A DNA stretch of 40,000 nucleotides. It comes from Phenylobacterium sp. (GTDB lineage: Bacteria > Pseudomonadota > Alphaproteobacteria > Caulobacterales > Caulobacteraceae). The notes beneath the pieces were generated by a model. The model worked only from the letters and a program-made list of their open reading frames with translations. It had not been told where the DNA came from and ran no database searches. This document shows positions 8,762-34,035 of the stretch, one piece after another. The translations under genes and the position numbers were made by a program. Within the stretch, counting starts at the first letter, position 1; each line of letters starts with the position of its first letter. The stretch lies in assembly GCF_041691455.1 (NCBI RefSeq), contig NZ_JBEPUO010000007.1, forward strand, positions 97,951 through 137,950. The letters run 5' to 3'.

Positions 8762-9123
8762 GGTGAAGTCTCCTTGCTCAAGCGAGGCCGCCCGTTGCGG
8801 CCGCGATGGCGATCGAGAGACCCGGCCGGACAGCGCCGGCGCAGACGAAGTCCCGCAGCGGAGCGGAGGACGGTGACGGCGGGCTTTCTTGCCTCGCGAG
8901 GAATGGGGCCGAAGGGCCCAGGGGAGGAAAGCCGGCCAAGCCGTTGCGGCGACGCCCGGCCAGGTCCAGATCACGTCAGAGCGGCTGCCACGGCGCGTCC
9001 CGCTCAAAGGAAGACGCCGCTCCCCGACTCAGAGAGACTCAAGCAAACCGTGGATGTCGCGCCGGCCCGAACCAGAGCAGACTGCCCTCCCCCACGGCGA
9101 AGGCCAACCGGACCCACGACCAG

Positions 9124-10029: not shown

Positions 10030-10243
10030 CGGACGTCGGCAGCCCACGGTAACCGGGCTTCTTCCGCCGTGCGTCAGCCCGTATGCTGGCAACGTCGGGC
10101 GCCGGGACATAGGCGCGGGTCTTGAGCCGGGATGCGTCGGAGACGCCGCATCGGCAGCGGCCCAAGCTGAAGCACCGGGCCGCCATAGCTGGACGGTTTC
10201 CAACGCCCGACCCCTTATCTCTCCGACGGAACCGGAGGCGGCG

Positions 10244-10873: not shown

Positions 10874-11115
10874 GGCCGCCCTCCCGCAGTTCGATGTCGC
10901 CGGTTCATTGGATCGGCGCAAGCCGTGCCGGGTGGACCCCTTGCCCCGGCGGTGTAGAAGACCCGCCCGCTGTCGAATCGCGGCAGAATTTCTGAAGCAC
11001 GCGGCAATAACTGTGCGCTCTTCCGCGAATCAAATGCGTGGGAAACTGCAGAGGATCGAGGGCTTCGGAACAGATATAACTGTCGGCCCCTATCGACGGA
11101 GACAACGCAGAGATC

Positions 11116-15528: not shown

Positions 15529-15547
15529 TCTTCTCCGCAGCGCAGCC

Positions 15548-15919
15548 ATGTATGAACTGACCAAGCAATTCCGCTTCGATGCGGCCCACACCCTCCTCCG
15601 CGACGTCGAAGCGGACGGGAGCCGGCGCATTCATGGGCATTCCTATCGCGCCGAGGTGACCCTGCGTGGGGCGCCCGACCCGGCCAGCGGCATGATCATC
15701 GATACGCGGATCCTGGCCGACAAGCTGGAAGAGACCCGCTGCGCCTTGGACCATCGCTTCCTGGACGAGATCAACGATCTCGGTCCCGGCACGATGGAAA
15801 ACCTCTGCAGCTTCATCTGGCGCCGCCTCGAGCCCGACATTCCCAGCCTGCACAGCGTCACCGTCCTGAGGGATTCCACCGCCGATCGCGTCACCTACTA
15901 CGGTGAGAGCCCGGCGTGA
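15548..15919 (+). CDS. queD: 6-carboxy-5,6,7,8-tetrahydropterin synthase QueD
   Basis: 123 aa. FRFDAAHTL...[12 protein letters not shown]...GMIIDTRIL is typical of the QueD/PTPS family. Confidence 0.9.
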
Positions 15920-16623
15920 GCGGCGCCCTAGTGCTGTTCTCCGGCGGCCAGGACTCCGCGACCTGCCTGGCCTGGGCCCTGACCCGCTTCGAGCGGGTCG
16001 AGACCATCGGCTTCGACTACCGCCAGCGGCATCGCGCGGAACTCACCGCTCGCAGCGAATTCCGGGCCGACCTGGCCCGCGCGTTTCCGGACTGGGGCGT
16101 CAAGCTGGGCGACGACCACATGCTGGACCTGGGCGTCCTCGCCGAGGTCAGCGATACGGCCCTGACCCGGGACATGGCGATCGCCACCGCCGCCTCCGGC
16201 CTGCCCAACACCTTCGTGCCCGGCCGCAACCTGCTGTTCCTGACCTTCGCCGGCGCCGTCGCCTACCGCCGCGACCTCAAGCACATCGTCACCGGCGTCT
16301 GCGAGACCGACTACTCGGGCTATCCGGACTGCCGGGACGACACCATCAAGGCCCTGCAGGTCGCCCTTAACCTCGGCATGGAGCGGCGCTTCGTCCTCGA
16401 GACCCCGCTCATGTGGATCGACAAGGCTGCCACCTGGGAGATGGCCCGCCAACTCGGCGGCCTGCGCCTCGTGGACCTGGTCCGCGACCGGACGCTCACC
16501 TGCTACGAGGGCGACACCACCCACGAGCACGCCTGGGGCCGCGGTTGCGGCGTCTGCCCGGCCTGCGATCTTCGCGCGAAAGGCTATGTCGCCTGGCGGC
16601 GTATGGAGTCGGTTCAGGCCTGA
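15916..16623 (+). CDS. queC: 7-cyano-7-deazaguanine (preQ0) synthase QueC
   Basis: 235 aa. It has the PP-loop [18 protein letters not shown] and the C-terminal Cys cluster CYEG...[11 protein letters not shown]. The GTG start overlaps the queD stop (GTGA). Confidence 0.92.
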
Positions 16624-16625
16624 AC
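16612..16625. repeat. perfect 14-bp palindrome GTTCAGGCCTGAAC containing the stop codons of both convergent genes (queC and the dpdD-like gene)
   Basis: Read directly. On each strand the palindrome reads GTT CAG GCC TGA, so both proteins end in V-Q-A-stop. The two coding regions overlap by 10 bp (16614-16623). Confidence 0.9.
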
Positions 16626-18695
16626 GGCGGCTAGGGCGGTTTCCGCCCATTCCTCCACGGCTCGGACGATACTGCTCGCCCCTTTGCCCGCCGCATAGAC
16701 CAGGGGCCGCTCGCCCCGCTTGCCCTTGAGAAATTCCGTGGCCGCGTGTTTAGCGGACGCCCAGACCACGACCACCAGGTCCGATCGCGACGCCATGGCC
16801 GCCAGCGCCGCGCTGCCGCCGCGGTCGTGATTGAGATCGACGCTGACGTTGGGCGCCGCCCGGGTCAGCAGAGCCTGAGCCTGCCGGGCGGCCGGCTCCG
16901 TGAGGGTATAGATTCCGACCGTCTTGCCGCCGAGTACCTGGGCGATGGCGGTAACGTCGGGAGCGGCCTGGGCGCCGCTCTCCGCGACCAGCCCCGCATC
17001 TTCGGCCAGTGCCGCCAGGGCCACGCGCTGGCCGTCCGAGAGGCGTGCGGCTAGGCCTTGCAGCACGGAGACGACATTGACGGTGAAGTTCTGGAGGCGC
17101 GCCGCATCGACGGGCGACACCGCGCGCGCCGTATCGACGACGTCCAGCACGTCGTAGGCGGACGCCCGGCTTACCGCCTCGACGCACACGGTTTCGGCGG
17201 CGTCGAGCGCATCGCGATAGTCGGCCGAACTCAGGCCGCTGCGCAGAGCGCCGTCCAGAAGCGCCGAGGTGGAGCGCAACAAGGCGTCGCCGCGGCGCGC
17301 CGCGAACGCCATCCGCACCAGCAGCGCGAGATAGACGGATCGATAGGCCTCGCGCGGCCATTGCGGATCGCCCTGAGCCCACTGCACGAGGAAGGGCATG
17401 GCCTCCCCCAGGCGCTCTTCGGCGAGCCCCTCCGGAATGTTAGCGATCTGGTCGGCCAGCCGGAAAGCCGCCGCCGGATCCGCAGCCCCCGCCGGCAGAC
17501 GCCAGGCCGTCGCACCCAGCCGCGCACTTTCGAGCGCATCGAAGGTCTCGTCTCCGAGCCGCGTCAGCCAGGCCGCCCAGTCCTGCGGCGGCGCGATGTC
17601 GCCCGCCCTGGCACGCACTTCCTCCCATAGAGCCCGGAACATCGGGCGTTCGAGGAGACGGCCCTGCGCCGGCAGGTCCAGGGCGCGCATGGCGTCCTGG
17701 AGGGCGGCATCGGCATCGGGGTCGCCCTCCGCCGGGCTGCTGGCCACCACGAGAAAGGCGGTCTGTGCACGTTGTAGCGGGTCCTGCGGCGCCGGCGCAG
17801 CGTCCGGCGCCCTCGCGGGCGCAACGTCGGCCTGAACGGCGGCCGGGGCCTCCGGGGCCGGCGCGGCGTTCGAAACCAGGACGCGCAGCCGTTCCACCGC
17901 GTCGGCGGCCGGGTTCGGCGCACGGGCCAGCAGCGACGCCACGAACGGAAAGGCCTCGTCGTCGGCGAGCTCGTCGGGGGTCCGCTCCCGCCCGTCTTCC
18001 GGATCGAAAGCGGCGCACCAGTAGATGGCTTCCAGCAACACCTCGGCCGTGGCGGGCGAAGGTCCCGAGAGCGCCAGGCTCTCGAAGCGGTCGTGCCAGC
18101 GGATCGCCGTCCAGTCCCCGGCGACTGCGAGGATCTGCATCTCCAGTTGGGTGAGGTTGATGGCGTCCAGGCGGAGTTCCGACCTCAGCCGCCCGTGAAT
18201 GCGCCAGGCGTCCGCTACGTCGCCGCCGTTCAGGGCGTCCTGCAGTCCCCCCAGGAGCCGCGACGTGGGTTCCGGACGCGACAAGGTGAGGACGGGGGCC
18301 GTCGCCAGAAGGGTCTGCAGCCGGCTCAGCGCCCGGATGACCGCCAGATCGGACTGAGGCTCCAGCCCCGGGCGGAGTCGGGCGACCGCGCTGGCGCCGC
18401 TCGCGAAAAGGATCTGCGCGAGCGGGTCGGCCGTGGGAACGCTCAACGGAACGCCGTGGAAATCCGTCAGGGTCGGACCGGAGAAAGCCAGCAACAGCGG
18501 CTGCAGCTTGCGCCACTCGGACGGAGAGCCCGCGACGGCATAGACGCAGAAGCCGCCATCGGCCTGGCGCGCCGGCAGCAGGCCGCCGGGGAAGCTCTCC
18601 TGGCTAAGCGTGGCCGCCAGGTCGCCGGCGCCGGCGGGCAGCGCGGCCCAGTCCGCCGCCGCGCCGAAAGCCGCAAGATCCAGGGTCAGCGCCAC
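16614..18695 (-). CDS. dpdD: DpdD-like protein (last gene of the restriction array), with a C-terminal DUF2325-like Rossmann-type module
   Basis: 693 aa. The GTG start overlaps the dpdK stop by 10 nt. Most of the protein has no motif I recognise. The C-terminus [11 protein letters not shown]...[22 protein letters not shown]...[14 protein letters not shown] resembles the DUF2325 pattern. The name is assigned by elimination, size and context. Confidence 0.5.
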
Positions 18696-19213
18696 GTGAG
18701 GTGACTCCCCCAGCGTTCGGTCAGGGCCAGCCGCCGCATCGCCGCCGCCTGCGGGTCGGCCCGCAGGAGCACGTGCTCGTCGCTCGTGGTGAGGCCGCTG
18801 AGCGTGAAGTTCATCGAACCGCCGAACACATAGTCCTCGCCGACCAGGGTCTTCTCGTGCGCGTCCGGCGAAATCGCCAGACCGAGCCGCCCGTCGGCGC
18901 GGGCCTGCGCCTCGCGCAGCGTCCGGAGGAAATAAGCGTTGTGGTCGACCTCGCGCACGACGACCGCCACCCGTGCGCCGCGTTGGGCGACGGCTTCGAG
19001 CATCTGGGTCAGCCGGATGGAGCCGGCGGGCCAGTCGGGCCGCACCGCGCTGAACGCCCGGGCGCCGTTGTCGACGATCTCCACGTCGCTGATCCAGGCC
19101 GAGAGCACCCAGAGCTCTGCGCTGGGCCGGAGAAGCTCCGTCAGAAAGAGGGTTTGCAGGGCGTCGCGGATGGCTCGGCTCTGCCAGGGGCCCGTGAAGT
19201 CGCGGCTCGTCAT
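18686..19213 (-). CDS. dpdK: single-HKD phospholipase-D-family nuclease, DpdK-like
   Basis: 175 aa from the ATG at 19213 (TGATG junction with the dpdJ stop). HKD motif: HEKTLVGEDYVFGGSMNFT (HxK...D...GSxN). Above 19213, the 940-aa track ORF 18686..21508 is an alternate-frame shadow of dpdJ. Confidence 0.8.
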   Translation of the reverse strand: MTSRDFTGPWQSRAIRDALQTLFLTELLRPSAELWVLSAWISDVEIVDNGARAFSAVRPDWPAGSIRLTQMLEAVAQRGARVAVVVREVDHNAYFLRTLREAQARADGRLGLAISPDAHEKTLVGEDYVFGGSMNFTLSGLTTSDEHVLLRADPQAAAMRRLALTERWGSHLTWR

Positions 19214-22200
19214 CAGATCTGTTCCCGCAAGACGAGCGTCGCGACGATCTGGGTCTCGTCCTTGGCGATCCGTTCGAGGACCGGGAACAACTGCAGGTGT
19301 CCCACGTGGATGGGCCGCACCAGGGTTGCGACCAGCGCCTCGCCCAGCCGATCGCGACGGGCCAAGGGCGCGCTGAGCCGCCCGACGCCCTCCTGTGCGA
19401 GCGTGGCGGCGAGGCGCTCCCACCAGTCGTCGTCGGTCACCGGAATGGCGGCGCCCCCGCCCTCGAGCAGCAGCGCCCGGACCAGCGCCGGGTCGGCCGG
19501 CAGGTCGCCGCGGAACGGATTCCAGTTGGACAGGGCCTGACGATGCAGGGCCAGCGTCCGCGGCCAGAGCAGGGCGCCGAAGGCGAGCGCCCGGTCGCCC
19601 GGCGGCGCCGCGGCCTCGAAGACGCCGGCCGCCAGCGCCAGATCGGCGGCGGTTTGATCTGCGGTCGCCAGCACCGCCGCCTCGCGGGGATCCAGTTCGA
19701 CGCCAAGCCGCGCTTCCGTCTCTTCCCAGAAGGCCAAGAGACGTCGGACGAGATCGTCGTGACGCGGCCCGATGCCGGGGGTCAGCATCCGGGCGCTCAA
19801 GGTCACCACGAAGGCGCGGGTCGTTTCCACGCCGTGGCGATCGAGTTCCAGCAGAAGGTCGGCGCGCGCCGCCGCCCGGGCCACATGGCCCAACTCGGCC
19901 CGGACGCGGGCGATCGCCTCCGCCACGGCCGGCTCCCGGGCCGCGAGCCCATAGGTCCTGGCCAGCGCCCCGGAGGCGACCTCGAGGTCGCTGGGTTCGA
20001 GCGCCGCCTCGATGCCCCGGTACAGAGCGCGGGGTTCGCCGGCGAAGCGATCGGCGATGGACTGCAGGACGCCGGCGCCGCCCAAGGTGGTTTCGGTAAG
20101 CCAGAGCGTCGCCCGGCGCGGATCGGCCGGGTCGGTTTCCAGATCGGCCAGGATCGCATCGGCGGCTGCCTGGCGCGGCGTTGCGGCGACCGCCGCCGTC
20201 AGCAAACCCTCCGCGAGCGTGCCCACCAGGGTGACGCGCAGATAGCGCGCCCGCTCCGGCCCCGCAGCGTCCAGGGCGGCGAGCAGGTTGGCGTGCAACC
20301 GGGCGCGCACGCTGCCGTCCCGGAGCGCTTCTTGCAGCCGCCCCTTCAGGCGTTCGAGCCGGTCCCGCAGCGGGCGCGTTGGGCCCGCATGGTCGGGCGC
20401 CGGGTCGTCGTCGTCGTCCTCCGCACCGAGAACGTCGGCCCGCTGAACGCCGAGCAGGATGTTCATGACGTCGTCGTAGTCCGCGAGCGAGCCGGCCTGA
20501 TCCACGGCGTCGGCGGCGCGCTGTAGCGTCTCGCCCCGGTCGAGCGCGCGCCTCGCGCAACACAGCAGATGGACCTGCCGCAGCCAGGTCTTCAGGAAGC
20601 CGTTGGTCTCGCGCGGGAACTGCCGGTCCTCCGCCGTCAGCCACCGATGCAGCGACGTGTGGAGCGTGCGTTGCAGGTGCGGTTCGAGCGGCGCCTCGGC
20701 CAGCGCCTCGGCCGGCGGAAGCCGAAGCCGCAAGGCCAGGCCGTCGGTCTCGAAATCGAAGCCCACCGCCGCCAGGGCGCCATCGCCGTCCCGGAAGGTG
20801 ATGTCGACGATCTGGTCGACGCCGCCCGGACGGCGCAGTTCGGCGCGGGCCTCGCTGGCGAAGCGGCTGACGCCGACGCTCGCCCGAAAGCGGTGCAGGT
20901 AGATGTCGGCGCCTTCGACGAAGCCCTGCCATGCGGTCCGGGCCGGCGGCGCGACCTGCACCGGTTCCCCGTGCGGCTGGAAGGCGCTGGACCACGAGAG
21001 GCGCGAATTGGAAGTGACGCCGACGACGCCGCGCGTCGCCTTGTCCAGCCGCAGGCGCCAGGGCCGGAACACCTGCGCCTCGATCCAGCCTCCGGCGCCC
21101 TCGCCGCGATGGGGGCCCAGAGGTTCGGAGGTCTCCGCGTAGGCGGCGACGTCCAGATCCCACTGGGTGATCCCCGCGGGGACCGGCGACCAGTGGGCCA
21201 GACCCCCGTAGGCGTCGCCGAACCGGCGTGTGACCCGCCCCGGCGCCAACTGCGCCAGTCCCTGCTGCAGCGCCAGGGTCTCGGTGACATCGGGATCGCC
21301 CTGCCGGTCGCCCGCGTGGACGATCTCGAGTTCGGGAAGGTTGAGGTCGGCGAACAGAGCGCTTGGCGCGAAGTCCGGCAGGGGGTGGTCGCGGATCCAG
21401 AGATCGTCCCGGGCCGCGCCGTTCGGCCAGGCCAGTCGCCAGTTGCGGTACATCCGCCGGCTCAGCGTCGGGATCACCTCCAGAAGCAGGGAGCGGGGCG
21501 GTTCCCACAGCAGGCTGGCCACCGCGGTGTCGTCCAGGCGCAGCGACGCCTTCAGATGGTCGGCGAGCGAGCGGCGCAGAGGACCGTCGGCGCGCAGCAC
21601 CTCCGACAGCAGGCGCGCGATGTGATCGCGCCAGGCGGCATCGTCCCAGGCCGGGCGGCTGGGCTGCGCCACAGTCTGCCAGGCGCTGCTGGTCGGTGTG
21701 CCGGGCGGGCGCGGCTGATCGGCAATCCAGTCCAGCAAGGCGAACGCGGCCTGCATGCGCAGCACATATTCGTTGCGGATCGGCAGGGACTGGGGCGGCA
21801 AGGTCGGTTCGAAAAGGTGCTCGGCCGCCTGGAACAACTGCCGGTCCCGGCCGTAGTCGGACAGGACCGTCAGCGTCAGCGGCCGCATCCGGCGGTCCCG
21901 CCCGGCGCGGCCGCGGCGCTGCAGGAAGGACGCGAAGTCCCGCGGCGCCTTGTGCTGCAGAACCGCGCCGACGCGACGGTCGTTGAAACCGACCTCCAGA
22001 GCCGATGTAGCGACGATGATATTGGCGGCGGCGTCGACGCCGGGGTCACGGGAGGTGGTGCGCGCGACGGTCAAGCGGTCGGACAGCGCGCGCCCTATCA
22101 CTTCGGGTAGTCTCCAGCGCTGGCCGTCCGCATCGCGGGCCCGGCGATCGGCATCGGTTTCCACGAGGCCGGGGGGCGCCTGACCGCGCATGGCCGCGAG

Positions 22201-23739
22201 CGGCAGACGCGCCGGATCGGGGTTGCCGAAGCGATCGAAGGCTTCCGCGTCCCGCAGGTCGTCGAACAGGCGATGCGTCACGTCCAGGTCGTCGGTGAAG
22301 GCGAACATCCGTTCGCCGAAGCGGAACTGCGACGGTCCGCCGGGCGGATCGAGAATGCGGCCGGCGAGCATGGCGGTCTGAATGGACGTCGAGAGCAGCG
22401 AGGTCCCGGCGGCGGGATCGCCCCGCAGCGCGATCTGATACTCGCGGCCCTCCTCGACATATTCGTCGTCTTGCGGCGTCACCTCCGCGACCGCGCCGGG
22501 CGGCAGGCCCGTCAGTTCGGCGAAGAAAGTCGCAGCGTCCTGCAGGGTGGCCGAAAGTCCGACCCAGGCGATGGGACCGCCCGCCAGCCGCCGCCACCGC
22601 CGCAAGGTCAGGGCCGCCTGGGCCCCGGCGACGCCGGTGTAGGTGTGCGCCTCGTCCAGCAGCAGGAACTCTGGCCGTCGGTTCGCAGCGGTCCGCACGC
22701 CGAACAGTCCGCGGCGGCGCTGGTCCGACAGGGACCGGTTGAGCATCTCGGTCGTCGTGAACAGCAGGTCGGGCGGCTCGCGGCGCAGGCGGTCGCGCGT
22801 CAGGACGAGCACCTCCGGGTCCGTGACCGACCCGCAGGACCGCGCGCATTGCAGGCGCTCGACGCCCTGAGCGATGTCTTCCGAACTCCACACCATGTCC
22901 CCGCCGCATCCGCAGCGCAGGTAGGGACAGACATAGGCCGTGCGCCGTCGCCGCCAGACCCGGGCGACCGCTTCCTCCCGGCCGGCGGTGGGCGTGTCGC
23001 CATAGAACGCGCCGAGCCGGATCGGCCGGCGGCCGGCCGCGGCCAGGGTGTCCACCAGGGCCACGGCGTTGCCGTAGGCCTCGCTCAGTTGATCCTTCAG
23101 CAACTCGTTGCGCGGATAGATGGCGATGGCTTTGGTCCAGAAGTCTCCCGTACGGACCCGTTCGGCGAGGCGCGTGAACACCGGCAGATAGAAGGCCAGG
23201 GTCTTGCCCGACCCGGTGCCGGCGCCGACGATCACCCCGACGTCCTGGCCCGGCGTCGGGAGCAGGCGATCCGCCGCCCGCAACTGAAAGGCCGCCAGCG
23301 CACCCGGGGCGATCGCCCGCCACACCGCCCGCTGAAGCGCTGTCAGATCCGCGGCGTCGGCTGCGGCGCCAGAGTCCTGGTCCCATCGCGGATAACGCCG
23401 CGCCCGCACGTCGAGACGGTAGTCGGCGACCAGCGGCGGCGCGCCGCGCCAGGATTCGCCGGCGAACGTCTGCCGCATCCGGGCCAGCAACCGAACCGTC
23501 TCGCCAAACCGGCTTCGGTAGCGGGGACCCCGCCCCGGGACGTCGAACTCCACGACGAGCGCGGCTTCGACCAGCGCTTCGAGACCGTCCTCGGCCTCTC
23601 CGGGGAAATGCGCTTCGGCGATCTCCAACGCTTCGTCGCGTCCCAGCGAAGCGCTGACGTCGCCCCACCGCAGCGAAAGCAGTTCGACGTCCTCGATCGC
23701 GTTCAGCAAGGCATCGTGCGCGGCGCCGAGAGCGGCCAT
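19213..23739 (-). CDS. dpdJ: very large DEAH-box SF2 helicase, DpdJ-like
   Basis: 1508 aa from the ATG at 23739 (TGATG junction with the upstream stop). Motifs: GAGTGSGKTLAFYLP (I), LLDEAHTY (II), LSATL (III), ATSALEVGFND...LQRRGRAGR (V/VI). A Cys cluster, CPYLRCGCGG...CARSCG, sits between motifs I and II. The roughly 750-aa C-terminal region has no motif I recognise. Confidence 0.8.
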   Translation of the reverse strand: MAALGAAHDALLNAIEDVELLSLRWGDVSASLGRDEALEIAEAHFPGEAEDGLEALVEAALVVEFDVPGRGPRYRSRFGETVRLLARMRQTFAGESWRGAPPLVADYRLDVRARRYPRWDQDSGAAADAADLTALQRAVWRAIAPGALAAFQLRAADRLLPTPGQDVGVIVGAGTGSGKTLAFYLPVFTRLAERVRTGDFWTKAIAIYPRNELLKDQLSEAYGNAVALVDTLAAAGRRPIRLGAFYGDTPTAGREEAVARVWRRRRTAYVCPYLRCGCGGDMVWSSEDIAQGVERLQCARSCGSVTDPEVLVLTRDRLRREPPDLLFTTTEMLNRSLSDQRRRGLFGVRTAANRRPEFLLLDEAHTYTGVAGAQAALTLRRWRRLAGGPIAWVGLSATLQDAATFFAELTGLPPGAVAEVTPQDDEYVEEGREYQIALRGDPAAGTSLLSTSIQTAMLAGRILDPPGGPSQFRFGERMFAFTDDLDVTHRLFDDLRDAEAFDRFGNPDPARLPLAAMRGQAPPGLVETDADRRARDADGQRWRLPEVIGRALSDRLTVARTTSRDPGVDAAANIIVATSALEVGFNDRRVGAVLQHKAPRDFASFLQRRGRAGRDRRMRPLTLTVLSDYGRDRQLFQAAEHLFEPTLPPQSLPIRNEYVLRMQAAFALLDWIADQPRPPGTPTSSAWQTVAQPSRPAWDDAAWRDHIARLLSEVLRADGPLRRSLADHLKASLRLDDTAVASLLWEPPRSLLLEVIPTLSRRMYRNWRLAWPNGAARDDLWIRDHPLPDFAPSALFADLNLPELEIVHAGDRQGDPDVTETLALQQGLAQLAPGRVTRRFGDAYGGLAHWSPVPAGITQWDLDVAAYAETSEPLGPHRGEGAGGWIEAQVFRPWRLRLDKATRGVVGVTSNSRLSWSSAFQPHGEPVQVAPPARTAWQGFVEGADIYLHRFRASVGVSRFASEARAELRRPGGVDQIVDITFRDGDGALAAVGFDFETDGLALRLRLPPAEALAEAPLEPHLQRTLHTSLHRWLTAEDRQFPRETNGFLKTWLRQVHLLCCARRALDRGETLQRAADAVDQAGSLADYDDVMNILLGVQRADVLGAEDDDDDPAPDHAGPTRPLRDRLERLKGRLQEALRDGSVRARLHANLLAALDAAGPERARYLRVTLVGTLAEGLLTAAVAATPRQAAADAILADLETDPADPRRATLWLTETTLGGAGVLQSIADRFAGEPRALYRGIEAALEPSDLEVASGALARTYGLAAREPAVAEAIARVRAELGHVARAAARADLLLELDRHGVETTRAFVVTLSARMLTPGIGPRHDDLVRRLLAFWEETEARLGVELDPREAAVLATADQTAADLALAAGVFEAAAPPGDRALAFGALLWPRTLALHRQALSNWNPFRGDLPADPALVRALLLEGGGAAIPVTDDDWWERLAATLAQEGVGRLSAPLARRDRLGEALVATLVRPIHVGHLQLFPVLERIAKDETQIVATLVLREQI

Positions 23740-24449
23740 CAGCGGGTCCGGATTCCGAACGCGCCGCCGAGCCCGTTCGCCGTGAGCCACGTCTGCACCG
23801 GCTCGTCCAGCCGCGCCAGATCTGCGCCGCCGTCGCTGCTGGCGTCGCGCAGGAACCGCGCCACGGACGGCGGCAGGCTCTCGGCGTCGAGCGTTCGCCA
23901 AGCGGTGGCGCAAGCCTCCGCAAGGTCGTCTAGCGTCTTGAAGATGGCCGGATCGATGGGAAGTTGGTCCGCCAGCGCGAGGGCGTCCCGCCTCAGTCGA
24001 CGCACCCGTTCCACGCGGGCCTGGAGCGCCGAGATCTGCGACAGGTGCTGCAGAAGATCTTCCCCGACGCTCGGGACTTTGCTGCGGACATGGGCCGACC
24101 AGGCCGCCGCCGACGCGGCTTCGACGGCCGCCGACAGGAGGTTGAGGGGGCCGATCGTTTTCGGAGACAGTTCGTTTGACGCCGCTGCGGCCGGATCGCT
24201 CGCGAGATCGGCCTTGAACGTCCTGAGGTAGAACGCAATGCCACCGGCCGACTTCGTGTCGAGGGCGACGGTCAGGCCTTCCGAGACGAGCAGGGTCCGG
24301 CGACCGAGTGCCAGCCGCAGCTTGGCGAGCGCCGCCTCCAACTGACCGGTCCGGGTCTCGACGGCCTGAACCTGGTGGGCGGAACTGCGCAGGGCGCCGA
24401 GTTCCGTGGTGTCCGATACGAAGCTGGCGGACCGCTCGAGCAGGCTCAC
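23739..24449 (-). CDS. dpdI: DpdI-like hypothetical protein
   Basis: 236 aa from the GTG at 24449 (GTGA overlap with the dpdH stop). Composition changes from Arg/Gly/Pro-rich, in the overlapping 5' part of track ORF 23739..24998, to balanced and Leu/Ala/Ser-rich. No motif recognised. The name comes from position and size only. Confidence 0.5.
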   Translation of the reverse strand: MSLLERSASFVSDTTELGALRSSAHQVQAVETRTGQLEAALAKLRLALGRRTLLVSEGLTVALDTKSAGGIAFYLRTFKADLASDPAAAASNELSPKTIGPLNLLSAAVEAASAAAWSAHVRSKVPSVGEDLLQHLSQISALQARVERVRRLRRDALALADQLPIDPAIFKTLDDLAEACATAWRTLDAESLPPSVARFLRDASSDGGADLARLDEPVQTWLTANGLGGAFGIRTR

Positions 24450-27400: not shown

Positions 27401-27457
27401 GTCGATATTGATGACGTCCGTGACGCGCTCGGGATCCCAGCAGACGACCTGTTTCAT
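24446..27457 (-). CDS. dpdH: large P-loop NTPase, DpdH-like
   Basis: 1003 aa. Walker A is AVLGPSGAGKSHVIHRM. A candidate Walker B, ELVILFEEFARLQG, lies about 240 aa downstream. ATGA overlap with the dpdG stop. Confidence 0.7.
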   Translation of the reverse strand: MKQVVCWDPERVTDVINIDADFVPDPVFWAVDTATPLRVTDPYAGPAREMSTEQLVEQFLDPVRGHYQLAVLGPSGAGKSHVIHRMRQLVELRSGFEVLAIRRLETNLRAVLEKLIQRLPPEERARYLEDLQRAGTTLATPEAQKSVLLDSLAQAIEEDTPQPQPGMDPELEQVLLAALPDLLRDPHLRPTKFLADGEVVSQLVDRLFSAREGKRLDEQILFDKDSLPLSGLDLLKCSKPARDAIEIYLYDADRTIPSVLTVINRNLNRAIARALNFSGDLLGELMGRIRTRLKAEGRELVILFEEFARLQGYDLAMLSALLVQGGENLCNVRWALACTSGRFRDLPDTVRTRMDAIVDLEDAPPRPDLAAFTARYLNAVRVGKTGLDQAFGLSARELPNACEGCEWRPDCFAAFGASREGMGLYPFTAAALPDFARRAGADDGERFNPRRFQRRVLKPVLMEEAANLKTGSFPSLALLNQLGGADILSFERGRLQEKAGPRFDQYLAFYQLWNAGRLNGAADPALQAFGLPPLSGFAESGPEPIEDDISSAEAAASDDGTSSSAGPKVAARDPVAVQLGAWIDGGRLDQSLAQTLRNGLFPLIERSIDWDELGLLPTTFASATASTGNRPFRNQSIQFANQATTGGVGGAIRLELPLRRDAAGFTATALALEVLLKHQKTGDWNQAFGLEGLAALSELATACANEVSRQLKGLAGNPKTWDPVAGAVDLLLVGSALAGGLATGPITDEKMIEAIFRPMPDESPFADGKLSAVYTRLRTKRANLQSLLRAHVSASKGGRQGRPIDPRPVRDAARRLRRQKWALSRTPAPLPDLYAEIGDLYALVLRDLPPALAAERDARVAWLAEIDAAFGPETGRQDILQAARAAAAAAIAEGVHAPAPALERSCAELAQVQFDAAVRSARVVATADPPEAELPTYARGRREAVEAASRLVTAWTAFLDAAETEIAQKRTDAGVDQISEKIGRLSQVVDDLVSELEPLETEA

Positions 27458-28317
27458 GCGGCCAGCCCCGGCCGCGCGACATGGCTCACCCGGCCGGCGT
27501 CCAGCAGACCTGGTACGAAGACCACCTCGGCGTCGTTGAGCATGTCGAAGGTCAGGACGCCCCGCTGTTTGGCGCGCTGCAGGGCCAGGGCCAGGGCCGG
27601 AGACGCCGCCCGGTCGGCGGATTCCAGACCGATCCGGTCCGCCACTTCGCGTCGTACGGCCCCGCCGTCGAACACAGGGCAGACCTTCGCCAGGTCGCTC
27701 ATGAACTTCCCGAGCGTGGCCTCGGCCCCCGGCGCCAGGACGCGATCAAGGCGCGCGAGCAGCGCCGCCGTCGGATCGGGCACGACGATCTCGTCCTTCA
27801 GGTTGAAGCGGGTGACGAACCCCAGGGTCCGGGCCCAGTAGACGGCCTGCTGAAAGCGGCTGTCGTTCGACATTCCGTAAGTGTCGCTCTGCCCGAGCTG
27901 ACGGAAGATCCGGGTGGTGGCGCCCGAGCCGCCCCACGGCAGGGCCTCCAGCGGATCCTGGCACAGGAACCAGGCGATGGCCCCCGCCATCCATCCCGAC
28001 GAAGGGCCGGCGCTATCGACCTGATCGACCATCCGGGAGGCGGCCACGTCCAGGAACGTCAGGCCCGGCTGGCGCACGGCTTCGGCCAGCCGCACCCGGT
28101 CCTCCTGCGCCTCGAATACGCCGAGATCCACACCGAGCCCGAGGCAGTCGCCCAAGGCGTTGTCTTCCCCGGGTTCGTCGCCCCGCGCCAGGGACGGCGG
28201 TCCCACCAGGGCCGCAAGCTTCTCGCGCTCCTCGCCCGGCTCTCCGGCCTCCGCCAGGATATCGAACAGGATCGTCATCCGGTGAGGGGTCGCGCCGACG
28301 GCGGTGATGGCCTTCAT
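27454..28317 (-). CDS. dpdG: DpdG-like hypothetical protein
   Basis: 287 aa. ATGA overlaps on both sides. Composition is balanced. No motif recognised. The name comes from position and size only. Confidence 0.5.
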   Translation of the reverse strand: MKAITAVGATPHRMTILFDILAEAGEPGEEREKLAALVGPPSLARGDEPGEDNALGDCLGLGVDLGVFEAQEDRVRLAEAVRQPGLTFLDVAASRMVDQVDSAGPSSGWMAGAIAWFLCQDPLEALPWGGSGATTRIFRQLGQSDTYGMSNDSRFQQAVYWARTLGFVTRFNLKDEIVVPDPTAALLARLDRVLAPGAEATLGKFMSDLAKVCPVFDGGAVRREVADRIGLESADRAASPALALALQRAKQRGVLTFDMLNDAEVVFVPGLLDAGRVSHVARPGLAA

Positions 28318-30794
28318 GTGCCCAGCCTCTCCAGCAATGCGTCCAAGGAGATCACCCGGCCGTTGTAGCGCTCCAGCAGGGCTTCGCCAGGCCGGTCCGG
28401 ATCCGGAAAATCCTCCGGCAGCAGGACGACGCGGGCATCGCGCCGTGGTTCCCCGAGCCGAACGGACCCGCCGGGCGCCACAAGCAGCACTTCGGCGCCC
28501 CGGGGAAGCCTCGACGTGGCGCGGCTCGCCGCAACGCTCGTGAAGATCGGCAAGGTCTCCAGGGCCTCAAGCGCCCGCGAGAACAGAGGCTGGGGCTCGC
28601 CGGGCATGCGGAGCATGCGCACGCCGCCGCCCCAGATCTCCGCCAGGGCCGAGGCCGCGCGGCGAAGGCTGTAGCCGCCGGACGCGCCCGGCGCATAGGT
28701 CACCACGAGTTCGCCGTCCTCGATCAGGTCGGCCAGCGGCGGCCAGCAGGGCGGCGCGTCCCAGGGGGACGCCGGTTCCCGCCGCAGGGGATCGGGACGC
28801 GCGGCGTGGGGGTCGACCCGGCAGAGACGACAGGAACTGCAGCCGGCGAGAAGGCGATCGGCGCCATAGAGCGACTCGAGCAGCGCCGAGGGGCAGATGT
28901 TCCCGCGCAGGTGTTGCAGCATCAGGTTCAGGTTGCGGGTTCGGGCCGCGGCGATCGCCGCGCGCACCGGCTCCACGAACCGCGTCCAGATCTCGGCCTT
29001 CAGGTGTCCCGGCTCGAGCACCTCGATCGTCTCGTAGACCCCCGGTTCGTCTGGGCCGGAGGCCACGTCGCCGACCAGCCGCACCAGGCCGGCGCGGCTC
29101 ATCAGGGTCAGGATGCGCGCATTCCACTGCAGACTGCGTTCGCCCACCAGATCGATATCGGCCTCGTCCGGGCCCGGCGCGACGTCGAGGCGGACCCGCA
29201 CGCGCTGGCCGCCCAGATGGCGGCTGTCGGGGTGATGGAACATCGCGCTCCAGCGCTGCAGACCGCGCACGACGGTGATCACCCGCTCGCGGTTGAGCCC
29301 ACGGGCGACCCGCACGTCCGCCACGGTCGGGGCGATCAACGATAGGCACGCCCCGCCGTCCCGGCCGCCCCGGCCGACCTCCTGATAGAACCGGTCGAAG
29401 GTCTCGGGCACACAGGCGTGGATCACGCTGCGGACGTGCGGATAGTCGATCCCCAGGCCGAACGCCGAGGTGGCCACGACCAGGTCCAGTTCACCGCCGC
29501 GCCAGGCCGCCAGGGTCTTTTCGCGTTCGGCGTCGGGCGATTTTCCGTGAAAGGCGGCGCACCGGCGGAAGCCCATTTCGCGGATCCGGGCCGCCCACCG
29601 CACGGCGTCCGCGACCTTGGTGACATAGAGCACGGCCGGCCGCGGCGCATGCAGCAGGGCCGCCTCCACCGTCGCCTCCCGGGTGGGCTCGTCGGCGACG
29701 GGCGCGACGTAGTAGGCCGGCTCGGGGCGCGTCTGCGCCGCCGACAGCAGGCGCAACCGGTCGGGGGCCGCGAACAGGGTTTCGAGCGTGTCCAGGGTCT
29801 CGGGCGTCAGCGTCGCCGACAGCAGGATGGTGCGCAGCGCGAGGTCCGGGGGCGCCGCCGCCATCAGTTCGTGGCGCAGCCCCGACAGGCTCTGGAATTC
29901 CGGCCGGAAGCCGGTGCCCCAGGCGTCGACCAGGTGCGCTTCGTCCAGCACCAGTGCTTTCAGCCGGCCCGCCTGGGCGAGATCCACCAGGTCCGATCGC
30001 AGGCTGCCGCAGGCCGCCTCCGGCGCCGCAAAGACCAGGCCCGACTTCAGGACGGTCAGCCGCTCCCGGATCGCGGCCCGCCGGGCGGCGTCCTGTCCGA
30101 CGTAGGCCAGGATCTCATCCGGATCGCGGCGACAGGCGTTCTCGTGGTCGTAGCCGAGCGCCACCGTGGGCACCACGACCAAGGTCACGCCCTCGCCGCC
30201 CGAGGTGCGGCCTGACGCGAAGCCCACCCGGTCGATGGCGCGGAAGACCAGGCTCTTGCCTTCGCCGGTGGGCAGATCGATCGCCAGGGCGCCGCCGGCG
30301 GGCGTCAGCAAGGCGGCGCGCACCGCCGCCCGTTGGCCGACCGAACGATAGCGCGCGTAGCCGAGCGGCCGAACGAAGGGATCGGGCGACGGACCCTGGT
30401 CTGCCGCCCCAAACCGTCGGCGGGCCGCCGCGGCCGCGACGGCGTCTGGCTCGGGCTCCGGGTCGGCGAGCCAGGGCGGCCGCCAGGGGGCCGCCCAGAG
30501 ATGCGACCCGTCGGGAGACTCCAGGCCGGCCGCGCGCAGGGACGCCGGGTCGAGGATCCGGACAGTCGGACGCCGGCATCGCGCAGGCCGCTCCAGGGGA
30601 CTTCGGCTGGTTTCCAGCAGCAGCAGCTGGCGCAGGAGGACGGCGAGATCCAGAGCGCTGGCCGACGGGTCCGCGAGCGCCTGACGCAGACGTTCGCCCG
30701 CAGGATCCGCGACGGTGAAATCGTCGAGACCCCGCTCGCCGACCAGGGCCGCGCGGAGCGCTGCGAACGCCGGGCCGTCGCTGACGACCGTCAT
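28314..30794 (-). CDS. dpdF: RecQ-like DEAD/DEAH helicase, DpdF-like
   Basis: 826 aa. Motifs: AIDLPTGEGKSLVF (I), LVLDEAHLVDAWGTGFRPEF (II, RecQ-style), LLSATLTPE (III), ATSAFGLGIDYPHVRSVIH (V), YQEVGRGGRDG (VI). Confidence 0.85.
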   Translation of the reverse strand: MTVVSDGPAFAALRAALVGERGLDDFTVADPAGERLRQALADPSASALDLAVLLRQLLLLETSRSPLERPARCRRPTVRILDPASLRAAGLESPDGSHLWAAPWRPPWLADPEPEPDAVAAAAARRRFGAADQGPSPDPFVRPLGYARYRSVGQRAAVRAALLTPAGGALAIDLPTGEGKSLVFRAIDRVGFASGRTSGGEGVTLVVVPTVALGYDHENACRRDPDEILAYVGQDAARRAAIRERLTVLKSGLVFAAPEAACGSLRSDLVDLAQAGRLKALVLDEAHLVDAWGTGFRPEFQSLSGLRHELMAAAPPDLALRTILLSATLTPETLDTLETLFAAPDRLRLLSAAQTRPEPAYYVAPVADEPTREATVEAALLHAPRPAVLYVTKVADAVRWAARIREMGFRRCAAFHGKSPDAEREKTLAAWRGGELDLVVATSAFGLGIDYPHVRSVIHACVPETFDRFYQEVGRGGRDGGACLSLIAPTVADVRVARGLNRERVITVVRGLQRWSAMFHHPDSRHLGGQRVRVRLDVAPGPDEADIDLVGERSLQWNARILTLMSRAGLVRLVGDVASGPDEPGVYETIEVLEPGHLKAEIWTRFVEPVRAAIAAARTRNLNLMLQHLRGNICPSALLESLYGADRLLAGCSSCRLCRVDPHAARPDPLRREPASPWDAPPCWPPLADLIEDGELVVTYAPGASGGYSLRRAASALAEIWGGGVRMLRMPGEPQPLFSRALEALETLPIFTSVAASRATSRLPRGAEVLLVAPGGSVRLGEPRRDARVVLLPEDFPDPDRPGEALLERYNGRVISLDALLERLGT

Positions 30795-33700
30795 CGGCGC
30801 GCAGCCTGCGGAATGTGGCCCGCGGCGACGATGGCCCCGACGCAGTCCAGCCGGGCGGCGGGTCGGGCGATCGCGTCAGCCACCATGGCGTCGAGCTCGG
30901 CCTCCCGCGCCAGCGTCGGCGACGGCCGGATCTGGCGGCGCACGCTCCGGCGCGCCGCGCGGCGGTCCAGTTCGGCGCTCGCCATCCCGCGCCCCTTCTG
31001 CGTCCAGGCTTCATAGTCGGGCGAAGCCACGAGGCGCGCCAGAGCCACGTCGCGCGCCGCGAAACACAGGCTCGCGAAGGCCTTGGGCTGCAGGACGCGC
31101 GCGAGCCAGTCTGGGCGGCTGCCGAGGTTGAAGTCGCGCCCACCCTCCTCCAGGGCCTCCGGCGCAAACGGCCGCTCCAGGATCTTCAGCCAGGCCGGGT
31201 CGTCGATGGTCTCCAGGTCCGGGCCGATATGCTGGGTCAGGGTCCAGGTGGGCATCAGCGACTGGGCGAACCGCTCCAGCGCCTCCACCGACTCGCCGCC
31301 TTCCAGTCGGGCCGCGTCGATGCGGCCCGGACCCACCACCCAGCAAAGGCGGAAAGCCAGCCGCTCTTCGCCCCATCCGCCGCCGCCCGGCTCGAAGCGC
31401 CAAGTGGCGAACGCCGATCCACGGTCGTCCCAGTCGAGGAGCTGCTGCAGCGGCTCGGTCAGAGCCGATCCCGGACGGATCAACCGGACGTCCTTGCGCG
31501 CGACGGCGACGCGACGCTTCCAGGTGAGCGGAACCTGCAGCGCCGGCGCAAAGCGCCGGCCCCACGGCGGGTCCGGCAACTGGGTGTCGGGCGCCCAGGC
31601 CAGCGTGAAGGCGTCGGCATCCAGCGCCCGCACCTTCAACTGCAGCATGCCGCGAACCAGACCGTCGACGTCGCGGCCAAGGGCGGACTCGTCCACTTCC
31701 GCCGCCTCGATCGACTCCACCAGGCTGCGCGCCGAGTCGCGCGACATCGCCAGCTGATCCAGGGCGTATTGCTCGTCGAGCGCGGTACGCTGGGCGCTGA
31801 GCTGCGCCCTGAGGCCGGGCTCGAATTCGGCAAGCGCCTCCGGACCCTGAAGCAGCCGCTCTTCGATCTCCGCATCGATCGCGGCGAGCGCAAACTGAAT
31901 GTCGCTGGTCGGCTTGTCGAAGATTTCGAATCCGGTCCGCAGGAGCTGCAGCCAGGCCGTCCACAGCGTGTCGTCGTCCAAGGCGGGCGTCAGGACGATA
32001 TGCCGGATCGGACCCTTGGTTCGACCAAAGCGATCGAGGCGCCCGATCCGCTGTTCGAGCCGCCCCACGGCGAAGGGCAGGTCGGCGTGCAGGATGGCGT
32101 CCGCGAAATGCAGATTCAGCCCCTCCTCTCCCGCTTCGCTCAGCACCGCGAGCGCCGGCCCGGGATGCCCTTCGAAAGCCTGCGCCAGATCGGCCTGGCC
32201 AGCGGCGGCGAAGACGGCGGTGTCCGCCGTCGCGCCCGCACACTCGGCGACTGCCGCGGCCATGTCGGCCTCCGAGCAGAAGACGACGAGTTTTGGCGCC
32301 GACGCGCCCGCGGACCGCAGGAACCGCAACTGGCGCGTCGCGATCTCGGCGACGAGGGGCGCCCGGCGCACAACGCGATCCGGGCCGAGGCTTTCGGCCA
32401 TGGCGCGCACGAGGTCGGCCTCGCCGGCGAAGAACTCGGTGGGCTCCGATGGAAGGTCCCGACCCGTCGTCACGGCCTCCAGCAAGGCCACGTGTCGCCG
32501 TTGCAGACGCTTCGCCGCCTCGGGTTTCGCCTCTTGCGCCAGCAAGGCCGCTGTCCGCCAGTCTTCCAGAGCCGCCAGAGCGCCGGCCAGCCCCGGGTCG
32601 TCGTCCTCTTCCTCGCGGACCGGCGCCGGACCCCTTGGCTGAAACTCCCATCCTTCGAGATCCGAGCGGCGGGCGCGGATGATCCTGTGATGGATGCGAT
32701 AGGTGTCGGCGATATGATCGCGCAGTCTGTCCGTCACGCCCGCGCGGGTTTCAGGGTCTTCGCTCTGGAGAAACCGCGCCGTGAGATCCTGGACGATCGG
32801 ATCCTCCGGGAAAGTCGACCGGGCTGCGGACATACGCTGCTTAAGGACGAAGGGACTGGCGTCCGCGCGCAACCCCAACAGGAGGCGACCATAGGTCTGC
32901 GCTTCGGCCACGTGCGTTCGAAAGTCCACGAGCGGCTCGTCGCCCCAGCGGTCGCGATCCAGAAGCTTGAGGAGCCCCAGCAGCGTCGCCTCATGGCCGA
33001 TGGGCGGAGTCGCCGACAGCAGCAGCAATTTCTCCGCCACCGCCGAGAGGCGCAGCAAGGGCGCGGGCAGCACGTCCCCGCCCGCGAGCCGGTGCGCCTC
33101 GTCCACCACAAGGATCGTGGCTGGGCTCAGGCCGTCCGAGAGATCCGAATGCGGCCGGACCCGGGTGCGGTCCGCGCCAAGTCCGGAGAGCCCAAACCTT
33201 TCCTCCAGTTCGTGGGTCCATTGCCCCGTCAAGGTCTCGGGCGCCAGCACCAACGCGGTGGCGGACGGATCGTCGAGGAGCGTCTGGCGAACCACGGCCC
33301 CGGCTTCGATCGTCTTGCCGAGCCCGACCTCGTCGGCGAGCAGGTAACGCTGCAGGGGATCGTGCAGAATGCGCCGAACGGCATCGGCCTGGTGCGGCAC
33401 CAACTCCACGGAGGCCGACACCAAGCCGGTAAGGCCCTGCGCCGCTGCCCGAAGATTGGTCAGGGCGCGTCGCGCCGGCCAGCGCGCGTCCGCCCAGCGT
33501 TGGGTCTCCGCCGCGCCGAAGGCCAGCACCTCCGCCGGGTCCCCGTCGTTGCTAAAGCAGCGGACGCGGAGCGCCGATTCCGGGATGTCGCTGACGTCCT
33601 GGTTCGGCGCCCGGACCTCGTAGGTCACCGCTCCGCCGTCCTCGAGCAGGAAATCGCGAACTCGTCCCATGCGCCAGCGATCGTCGCTGCGGCGGAAGTA

Positions 33701-33994
33701 AACTCGGGTCTGGCGGGGCAGATAGGTGCGCCTCACCGTCTGGAGTGGCAGCCGGACGCGTTCCTGCCGCGTCGTCGAGTGAAAGAACTCCACGTCCGCA
33801 TGCTGATCGTCACGTCCCAGAAGCAGGCCGACGCCCCTAGGGTCGTCGACCTCCACAAAGTATGGCTGTTGCAAACTGACCAGCCCCCCGACCGAAGCAT
33901 GGACGTGAACCGCCATGTTCGGCAACCGCGAGTTGCTGGTCGGACGTGGGTGATCGCGACGAGACGTAGGCCTTAGCCCGCCGCCGTTGGCCAC
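30791..33994 (-). CDS. dpdE: SNF2/RapA-like helicase, DpdE-like
   Basis: Up to 1067 aa. Motifs: LLADEVGLGKTIEAG (I), VVDEAHRL (II), LLLSATPP (III), EEGLNLHFADAILHADLP (V), QRIGRLDRFGR (VI). The start is uncertain: GTG at 33994 or ATG at 33916 (MAVHVHASVGG), and neither has a clear SD. Confidence 0.85.
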   Translation of the reverse strand: MANGGGLRPTSRRDHPRPTSNSRLPNMAVHVHASVGGLVSLQQPYFVEVDDPRGVGLLLGRDDQHADVEFFHSTTRQERVRLPLQTVRRTYLPRQTRVYFRRSDDRWRMGRVRDFLLEDGGAVTYEVRAPNQDVSDIPESALRVRCFSNDGDPAEVLAFGAAETQRWADARWPARRALTNLRAAAQGLTGLVSASVELVPHQADAVRRILHDPLQRYLLADEVGLGKTIEAGAVVRQTLLDDPSATALVLAPETLTGQWTHELEERFGLSGLGADRTRVRPHSDLSDGLSPATILVVDEAHRLAGGDVLPAPLLRLSAVAEKLLLLSATPPIGHEATLLGLLKLLDRDRWGDEPLVDFRTHVAEAQTYGRLLLGLRADASPFVLKQRMSAARSTFPEDPIVQDLTARFLQSEDPETRAGVTDRLRDHIADTYRIHHRIIRARRSDLEGWEFQPRGPAPVREEEDDDPGLAGALAALEDWRTAALLAQEAKPEAAKRLQRRHVALLEAVTTGRDLPSEPTEFFAGEADLVRAMAESLGPDRVVRRAPLVAEIATRQLRFLRSAGASAPKLVVFCSEADMAAAVAECAGATADTAVFAAAGQADLAQAFEGHPGPALAVLSEAGEEGLNLHFADAILHADLPFAVGRLEQRIGRLDRFGRTKGPIRHIVLTPALDDDTLWTAWLQLLRTGFEIFDKPTSDIQFALAAIDAEIEERLLQGPEALAEFEPGLRAQLSAQRTALDEQYALDQLAMSRDSARSLVESIEAAEVDESALGRDVDGLVRGMLQLKVRALDADAFTLAWAPDTQLPDPPWGRRFAPALQVPLTWKRRVAVARKDVRLIRPGSALTEPLQQLLDWDDRGSAFATWRFEPGGGGWGEERLAFRLCWVVGPGRIDAARLEGGESVEALERFAQSLMPTWTLTQHIGPDLETIDDPAWLKILERPFAPEALEEGGRDFNLGSRPDWLARVLQPKAFASLCFAARDVALARLVASPDYEAWTQKGRGMASAELDRRAARRSVRRQIRPSPTLAREAELDAMVADAIARPAARLDCVGAIVAAGHIPQAARR

Positions 33995-34035
33995 CGGCCG
34001 CGTCGCGACCGCCGCAACCGGCGCCCGATTGCAAT

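Follow-up and report, generated by a model that had tools for sequence, protein, structure and literature searches.

Overlapping genes in the probable restriction operon of a Dpd 7-deazaguanine system on a mobile element in Phenylobacterium

Why do eight consecutive genes in a Phenylobacterium genome leave no space between one reading frame and the next, and what might their products do together? The genes lie in a 40,000-nt stretch of Phenylobacterium sp. DNA (contig NZ_JBEPUO010000007.1, positions 97,951 to 137,950), here called the window. On its minus strand, dpdE, dpdF, dpdG, dpdH, dpdI, dpdJ, dpdK, and dpdD follow one another from 33916 to 16614, and all seven junctions, read directly, overlap. 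Very probably, these genes make up the restriction operon of a Dpd 7-deazaguanine restriction-modification system that is complete and canonical and lies on a mobile element.

The identity of the genes was supported by several sources. Seven of the eight array proteins (DpdE, DpdF, DpdG, DpdH, DpdJ, DpdK, and DpdD) scored above the curated equivalog cut-offs of NCBI, and PADLOC assigned them the same Dpd names as NCBIfam. The gene identities from dpdE to dpdD proposed in an earlier note on this DNA are thus backed by NCBIfam, PADLOC, and the NCBI annotation. In the direction of transcription, dpdE (30791..33916) encodes a 1041-aa helicase of superfamily 2 (SF2) and of the SNF2/RapA type, resembling BrxHII and DrmD (NCBIfam DpdE, 899 bits against a cut-off of 500); dpdF (28314..30794) encodes an 826-aa RecQ-like DEAH SF2 helicase (734 bits against 550); dpdG (27454..28317), a 287-aa protein (109 bits against 80); and dpdH (24446..27457), a 1003-aa P-loop AAA+ ATPase (504 bits against 450). 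They are followed by dpdI (23739..24449), which has a GTG start, encodes 236 aa, was assigned by position and family, and is labeled "hypothetical protein" at NCBI. The last three are dpdJ (19213..23739), for a 1508-aa DEAH SF2 helicase of the YprA/DrmA type (1565 bits against 800), dpdK (18686..19213), for a 175-aa single-HKD nuclease of the phospholipase D (PLD) family (183 bits against 100), and dpdD (16614..18695), for a 693-aa protein that also begins with GTG (464 bits against 300).

The modification genes form a plus-strand module (11116..16623) that converges on dpdD. It begins with dpdC (11116-12030), which gave no NCBIfam match; a PADLOC DpdC match of 274 bits ruled out the absence of this gene. 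Next come dpdB (12027-13130), dpdA (13127-14416, with its ATG at 13127; NCBIfam DpdA, 530 bits against 200), a second dpdB (dpdB′, 14413-15528), a queD-like gene (15548-15919), and queC (15916-16623; NCBIfam QueC, 200 bits against 150). The two DpdB paralogues, DGQHR/ParB-like ATPases that flank dpdA, share 36% identity, and both exceed the NCBIfam DpdB cut-off of 300 (412 and 366 bits for the two copies). Extra dpdB copies were common (n=801) in a 2025 survey, which counted 37,198 dpd islands, 2,335 of them unique, and found intact synthesis-plus-restriction operons to be the commonest form. The preQ0 synthesis pathway is completed by queE (7-carboxy-7-deazaguanine synthase, 39027-39716, plus strand; TIGR04508 queE_Cx14CxxC, 360 bits against 240), which recombinase and ParB-like genes separate from the remainder of the system.

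All eleven gene families of the Dpd system of Salmonella enterica serovar Montevideo (dpdA to dpdK) were therefore present in the window. Known Dpd systems and the window also have in common linked preQ0 synthesis genes, a mobile-element context, and DpdA and DpdB proteins above the equivalog cut-offs. Unlike the Salmonella system, the window carries a second, divergent dpdB beside dpdA, a DpdI too divergent for the curated model, a very high GC content, and a queE displaced by the recombinase and ParB-like insertion. The system itself is already known: it was named Dpd in 2016, the proteins described here already carry Dpd names in NCBI, and the architecture is the usual one.

The junctions fell into a few types. 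The dpdE/F, dpdF/G, and dpdG/H junctions each consist of ATGA, a 4-nt overlap, and dpdH/I consists of GTGA, also a 4-nt overlap. At dpdI/J and dpdJ/K, the overlap is the 1 nt shared within TGATG, and at dpdK/D it is 10 nt (GTGGCGCTGA). Every overlap type listed from E to D in the earlier note read back identically on the minus strand. The array had been described there as 17.4 kb of contiguous genes. The contiguity held and the length did not: because dpdE starts at 33916, the array measures 17.3 kb and has 117 nt of noncoding sequence upstream. Since this stretch (33917..34035, minus strand, sequence read) is the sole gap on that strand between the upstream RepB/ParB-like gene and the end of dpdD, it is likely to be the promoter region of the operon.

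Comparison with nine other loci showed how far this architecture extends. The set, in which each locus had its own annotation or gene calls, comprised Agrobacterium vitis, Nostoc, and Enterobacter plasmids, Mesorhizobium, Acidisphaera, and Brevundimonas-type loci, and three distant metagenomic contigs. The order E-F-G-H-I-J-K-D was the same in all nine, and 50 of their 63 junctions overlapped. When the window was included, overlaps were found in 10 of 10 loci at H/I, in 9 of 10 each at E/F, F/G, and K/D, in 8 of 10 at G/H, and in 6 of 10 each at I/J and J/K. Some loci matched the window closely. For instance, the A. vitis and Acidisphaera operons have overlaps at all seven junctions, as the window does. 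Mesorhizobium sp. (GCA_004021705.1), Acidisphaera rubrifaciens, and the Brevundimonas-type locus, with DpdH identities of 69%, 59%, and 47%, respectively, share the window's gene order and near-identical junctions, including the 10-nt K/D overlap, which was thus seen again in three related loci. However, other genes flank these three operons, and the modification genes of the Brevundimonas-type locus lie upstream in the same direction instead of converging. In Enterobacter and Acidisphaera, as in the window, the restriction operon converges on the modification genes. Departures from the compact pattern were found in Nostoc, where six genes lie between dpdJ and dpdK, and on a Deinococcus plasmid, where the J/K end is remodeled and the E-to-H part is conserved. 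Compactness, as the recurring order and overlaps show, belongs to the family and is kept most strictly among the closer relatives in the alphaproteobacteria. A megablast search of the 17.4-kb array against plasmids gave no match, and a scan of genome contigs with the single protein DpdH gave no confirmed relative.

Do the overlaps then carry a signal of their own? Overlaps of 1 or 4 nt also occur at 7 of the 8 same-strand junctions that the window has outside the array (dpdC/B, dpdB/A, dpdA/B′, queD/C, recombinase/ParB, ParB/ParB, and MobC/relaxase; Fisher p = 1.0), with the qualification that the starts of these flanking genes are mechanical open reading frame (ORF) calls and are less certain. 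The only one with a gap, of 19 nt, is dpdB′/queD. Overlaps are therefore not special to the array. Shine-Dalgarno-like pairing was fair before dpdG, dpdI, and dpdD (−6.4 to −8.4 kcal/mol) and weak before dpdF, dpdJ, and dpdK. A sigma-70 scan found 0 promoter-like sites inside the array against 0.7 expected, and no match to a sigma-70-type consensus was found in 33917..34035 upstream of dpdE, a consensus that may not suit this organism. Terminator-like sites in the array numbered 5 compared to 7.2 in shuffled sequence. The earlier note had argued from overlap to strict translational coupling and from there to fixed stoichiometry and a large multimotor complex. As argued, this chain was not supported: overlaps are the norm in the window, F, J, and K are preceded by only weak Shine-Dalgarno-like pairing, and the J/K junction is interrupted in Nostoc. 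Rather, the overlapping start and stop codons probably mark one compact transcription unit with some translational coupling, and the tight packing is the usual layout of the Dpd operon and of this genome. At the downstream end, the convergent queC (plus strand) and dpdD (minus strand) overlap at their 3′ ends by 10 nt (16614-16623). No terminator fits between the two operons, so that transcripts of each could run on, antisense, into the other. No tRNA genes or Rfam families were found in the window.

The motor and nuclease subunits were examined for their motifs. DpdE, DpdF, and DpdJ all contain a DEAH motif. They had been described as three unrelated SF2 helicases; they do belong to distinct families (SNF2/RapA, RecQ, and YprA), but "unrelated" is too strong, as all three are SF2 enzymes. 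In DpdE, the motif reads VVDEAH at residue 297 (in the numbering of a 1067-aa product), and DpdF gave 123 bits with the recQ_fam model, under the cut-off of that model. DpdJ gave PADLOC cross-matches to DruE, DrmA, and SngC. It has a five-Cys Zn-binding motif (residues 271 to 302) in RecA1, between Walker A (176) and DEAH (362), and no four-Cys DUF1998 cluster was found in it. This pattern fits the description of the canonical Dpd YprA helicase in a preprint (10.1101/2025.09.15.676423), which places DpdJ in a DISARM-like clade of the YprA helicase family. DpdK has HEKTLVGED once, at residue 119, and GSMN once, at residue 132, with a Pfam PLDc_2 score of 28.4 against a cut-off of 27 and a weak PADLOC cross-match to DrmC. 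Having a single HKD, it would be expected to pair into a homodimer with one active site, as single-HKD PLD nucleases are known to do. The motifs of both the P-loop ATPase (DpdH) and the single-HKD PLD nuclease (DpdK) were present as the earlier note had said.

These three proteins invite comparison with DISARM, in which a YprA-family DEAH helicase, an SNF2 helicase, and a small PLD nuclease are likewise found together, as are DpdJ, DpdE, and DpdK. The PADLOC cross-matches to DrmA, DrmD, and DrmC were weak, with Drm scores far below the curated cut-offs. In contrast to DISARM, DpdJ is not split into DrmA and DrmB and lacks the DUF1998 four-Cys cluster, and no DISARM methyltransferase was found in the window.

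A second comparison is with BREX, and it turns mainly on DpdH. Walker A of DpdH is GPSGAGKS (G73-K79-S80), and the Walker B strand is LVILFEE (300 to 306), with E305 invariant in a 23-sequence alignment. The same alignment showed an invariant C402-x2-C405-x5-C411 cluster and an invariant C330 and C6-W7. Walker A is intact; the spacing, given in the earlier note as about 240 aa, is 226 aa from K79 to E305, roughly double the value of about 105 aa measured in two BrxC-type proteins. In the structural model (predicted local distance difference test [pLDDT], 84.4), helices fill residues 108 to 295, after strand 2 and before the Walker B strand, and further long helices occupy residues 832 to 1002. 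The resulting layout of P-loop, strand 2, helical insert, Walker B, later domains, and long C-terminal helices appears to resemble in outline the published plan of BrxC, an ORC/Cdc6-type AAA+ head followed by a long helical tail, and DpdH and DpdI together (1239 aa) are the size of BrxC. Further likenesses are that the P-loop GxGKSHL and the Walker B context hhhh-[D/E]-E-F are common to DpdH and a protein in the PglY position of BREX-3, and that DpdE gives strong partial PADLOC matches to BrxHII models.

Searches for a BrxC relationship returned little. No BrxC, PglY, or DUF499 model in PADLOC or Pfam matched DpdH, even at an E value of ≤10. An hhalign comparison with the BREX-3 DUF6079 protein in the PglY position aligned 32 P-loop columns only, with a probability of 33%, and a comparison with a DUF499 protein gave no alignment; sensitivity in both is limited by the single-sequence template. 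A profile search of Protein Data Bank (PDB) sequences returned only helical-bundle noise and P-loops, and Foldseek of the model against solved structures gave weak matches to the AAA+ proteins ORC/Cdc6, RuvB, and VCP, none of them significant. DpdH differs from the BREX proteins in its invariant Cys cluster, its Walker spacing, and a profile match confined to the P-loop, and BREX marks self by methylation whereas Dpd does so by base exchange. No match to PglZ or PglX was found among the window ORFs scanned, so the system is not BREX, whatever the ancestry of DpdH. The Cys cluster and the enlarged Walker insert were not found mentioned in the Dpd literature searched.

The earlier note had held that DpdG, DpdI, DpdD, and most of DpdH have no recognizable domains. 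This was true of the Pfam copy used; newer Pfam releases contain DpdG (PF28110) and DpdD (PF28109). The structure prediction and Foldseek search that it had recommended for DpdG produced a confident AlphaFold2 model (pLDDT, 90.4; predicted template modeling score, 0.89) of about three tandem winged-helix domains, and only weak matches. The top matches were all tandem winged-helix arrays, namely, the SelB C terminus and the recognition domains of FokI and Nt.BspD6I. A DUF2325-like C terminus of DpdD (residues 620 to 682) was considered and rejected as nonsignificant (Pfam E value, 0.11).

DpdI required a comparison across loci. Over its whole length it can be aligned with the gene that separates dpdH from dpdJ in eight further loci (alphaproteobacterial, cyanobacterial, and Deinococcus), and the family shares a C-terminal motif, P-x2-V-x2-FL...GA-x-L...WL. 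An exhaustive profile search collected 565 clusters, nearly all of them stand-alone proteins of 233 to 258 aa. In each of the five annotated genomes examined (Phenylobacterium, Agrobacterium, Nostoc, Deinococcus, and Enterobacter), the gene at this position goes unrecognized by the NCBI DpdI model and is labeled "hypothetical protein," and the PADLOC DpdI model did not match the array protein either. Judged by these alignments, DpdI is a conserved positional family between dpdH and dpdJ, despite its score below the cut-off. In one metagenomic Dpd operon (contig L008, at 13065-14717), an insertion sequence element with a DDE transposase splits dpdI and leaves the other seven genes intact; by its sequence, this is a natural dpdI knockout. 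A 951-aa predicted protein (P0149) contains a full DpdI and the N terminus of a DpdJ, with 63% identity to the DpdJ described here. It may be a genuine fusion; alternatively, the stop codon that lies within the 1-nt TGATG overlap may have been lost, or the protein may be an assembly or frameshift artifact. DpdI was also considered as a split-off C terminus of BrxC, and support for this role was not found: hhalign gave no alignment, and no fusion to the C terminus of a large protein occurred in the best 150 family members. Since I is joined to J in the sole fusion, and since no member among the best 150 stands behind a DpdH-like protein, DpdI could be a dedicated partner of DpdJ and not the detached BrxC C terminus that the published "DpdHI/BrxC" label suggests, in a division of labor so far undescribed, with DpdG as the reader, for DpdH, of the target sequence or of the 7-deazaguanine mark; we consider this combined proposal speculative and distinctly improbable.

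How these proteins might work together can be sketched from what is known of Salmonella. There, DpdA inserts preQ0 into DNA, DpdB hydrolyzes ATP, and DpdC converts preQ0 to ADG in vitro, and restriction of unmarked DNA by DpdD to DpdK has been reported genetically (PMC10164549). By homology, QueC, QueD, and QueE would make preQ0, DpdA and the DpdB ATPase would put it in place of specific guanines of host DNA, DpdC would convert it to the amide form dADG, and DpdD to DpdK would restrict DNA without the mark. Within the restriction operon, DpdH (perhaps an ORC/Cdc6-type AAA+ protein, with a long helical tail) and the winged-helix DpdG, perhaps with DpdI, may load on DNA and read its modification state. 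DpdE (SNF2 type), DpdF (RecQ-like), and DpdJ (YprA/DrmA type) may then translocate on or unwind the unmarked DNA, and DpdK, paired as a dimer, may cut it. Taken together, this division into reading by DpdH, DpdG, and DpdI, motor activity by DpdE, DpdF, and DpdJ, and cutting by DpdK is tentative, and somewhat more likely to be wrong in some part than right as a whole.

No observation contradicts the identity of the system, but several points weigh against these assignments. First, DpdI fails its curated cut-off (29.3 bits against 150; E value, 8e-7), and the match covers only the C-terminal half. Second, the queD-like gene has a QueD/PTPS match that is under the NCBIfam cut-offs. Third, the structural matches of DpdG are weak and statistically nonsignificant. 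Fourth, the link between DpdH and BrxC could not be confirmed by profiles or Foldseek; the "BrxC/PglY-style" description in the earlier note agrees with the preprint, which calls "DpdHI" BrxC-like and DpdE BrxHII-like and names a PLD nuclease, but neither a profile search nor a solved-structure search bore it out. The supplements of the preprint contain no mention of DpdG, DpdD, DpdI, DpdH, or DpdF. Finally, the split of roles among H/G/I, E/F/J, and K is drawn from family resemblance only, and the Salmonella report states that the individual roles of DpdD to DpdK are unknown (PMC10164549).

Other explanations of the array can be weighed on the same evidence. The one that survives best sees the operon as a mosaic in which two modules are semi-independent: DpdE, DpdG, and DpdH would form a BREX-like sensor or scaffold, and DpdI, DpdJ, and DpdK a DISARM-like effector, with DpdF and DpdD as accessories. 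The PADLOC cross-matches of DpdE to BrxHII and DrmD, of DpdJ to DrmA and DruE, and of DpdK to DrmC fit such an origin, as does the preprint with its BREX-like DpdE and DpdHI, DISARM-clade YprA helicase, and PLD nuclease. Conservation along the operon fits as well: the junctions on either side of dpdJ are the least conserved (6 of 10), the Nostoc insertion lies between J and K, the Deinococcus plasmid is remodeled at its J/K end and conserved from E to H, and the sole fusion seen joins I to J. However, all eight genes occur together in one order in most loci, the placement of DpdI on the J side depends on one predicted protein that may be an assembly or frameshift artifact, and the preprint groups DpdI with DpdH instead. 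This explanation is possible but doubtful.

A second explanation, which we judge unlikely, is that the chain of overlaps enforces coupling and fixed subunit ratios and that all eight proteins form one large multimotor restriction complex. The conservation of gene order and tight packing across phyla is in its favor, particularly the overlaps at H/I in every locus and at E/F, F/G, and K/D in 9 of 10, the return of the 10-nt K/D overlap in three related loci, and the single predicted DpdI-DpdJ fusion. But unrelated same-strand genes in the window overlap just as often (7 of 8), an overlap alone does not fix a 1:1 output, and three genes (F, J, and K) have weak Shine-Dalgarno-like pairing at their starts. 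Moreover, I/J and J/K overlap in just 6 of 10 loci, six genes separate J from K in Nostoc, an earlier review reports that dpdE, dpdF, dpdJ, and dpdK are variably distributed among dpd clusters, and the literature searched offered no biochemical evidence of a complex.

It is highly improbable that some overlaps are artifacts of miscalled starts that conceal real spacers and internal promoters. The concern is a natural one. High GC content provides many alternative in-frame GTG and TTG codons, and independent support for the starts was needed because the dpdI, dpdJ, and dpdK frames stay open far upstream of their called starts in this 70% GC genome. In addition, the dpdE start of the earlier note does differ from that of NCBI. 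That note had begun dpdE at GTG 33994, whereas NCBI uses ATG 33916, which yields exactly the 1041-aa WP_372784829 ("protein DpdE"). An exact-sequence look-up of the 1067-aa product from GTG 33994 found no such entry in the protein collection, and the closest DpdE homologues, at 1020 to 1042 aa, agree with the ATG; neither candidate is preceded by a good Shine-Dalgarno-like sequence. The other seven starts, on which the overlaps depend, hold at NCBI, so that miscalled starts, which the earlier note had itself raised as a way to refute its reading, were not found behind them. The starts of F, G, H, I, J, K, and D picked independently by the NCBI pipeline are the same as those used here. By exact-sequence look-up, the products of dpdF, dpdI, dpdJ, dpdK, and dpdD are identical from first to last residue to NCBI Phenylobacterium sp. 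proteins, and those of dpdG and dpdH equal NCBI entries at 100% identity over the full length. Alignments to the curated profiles start no more than a few residues from each called start, homologue lengths match, and the GC content at third codon positions is 0.84 to 0.90 in all eight array frames. The N termini of DpdI align over nine loci, and DpdI has no internal Met. Promoter-like and terminator-like sites, as noted above, show no excess in the array.

With curated models available for every dpd gene, the locus has little discovery value. It is, rather, an intact, compact, high-GC example of possible use for structural work, and the mildly new leads come from DpdG with its modeled tandem winged helices, from DpdH with its insert and Cys cluster, and from the affiliation of DpdI.

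The system is placed on a mobile element because of the genes in its flanks, which include ArdC, a MobC-like gene, a relaxase, two RepB/ParB-like genes, and a large serine recombinase. On the minus strand are the relaxase (4325-5350), the MobC/NikA-like gene (5347-5868), and the ArdC anti-restriction metalloprotease (7476-8375); the anti-restriction gene thus lies only a few kilobases from a restriction system. The serine recombinase and the two RepB/ParB-like genes (34036-37453, minus strand) have mutually overlapping junctions and stand directly upstream of dpdE on the same strand. They were considered as parts of the Dpd system and rejected, as none of the related loci has them upstream of dpdE. 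For the same reason, they look either like an insertion of a mobile element or like genes with which the element maintains itself. GC content is 70 to 76% in the restriction operon (16000-34000) compared to 61 to 69% in the flanking mobile-element genes, which suggests that parts of different origin are joined within the element.

Two further genes on the plus strand may belong to defense. A 1104-aa ResIII/DEAD helicase (905-4219) has weak matches to PbeA and to a DNA-phosphorothioation restriction enzyme family and may be a second defense gene on the same element. A 407-aa ORF (8806-10029) has a weak match to MntA-like nucleotidyltransferases and a PADLOC match to PDC-S09, and it may be a toxin-antitoxin-type or defense gene beside dpdC. 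Overlapping ORFs were also seen near dpdC, at 9902-11624.

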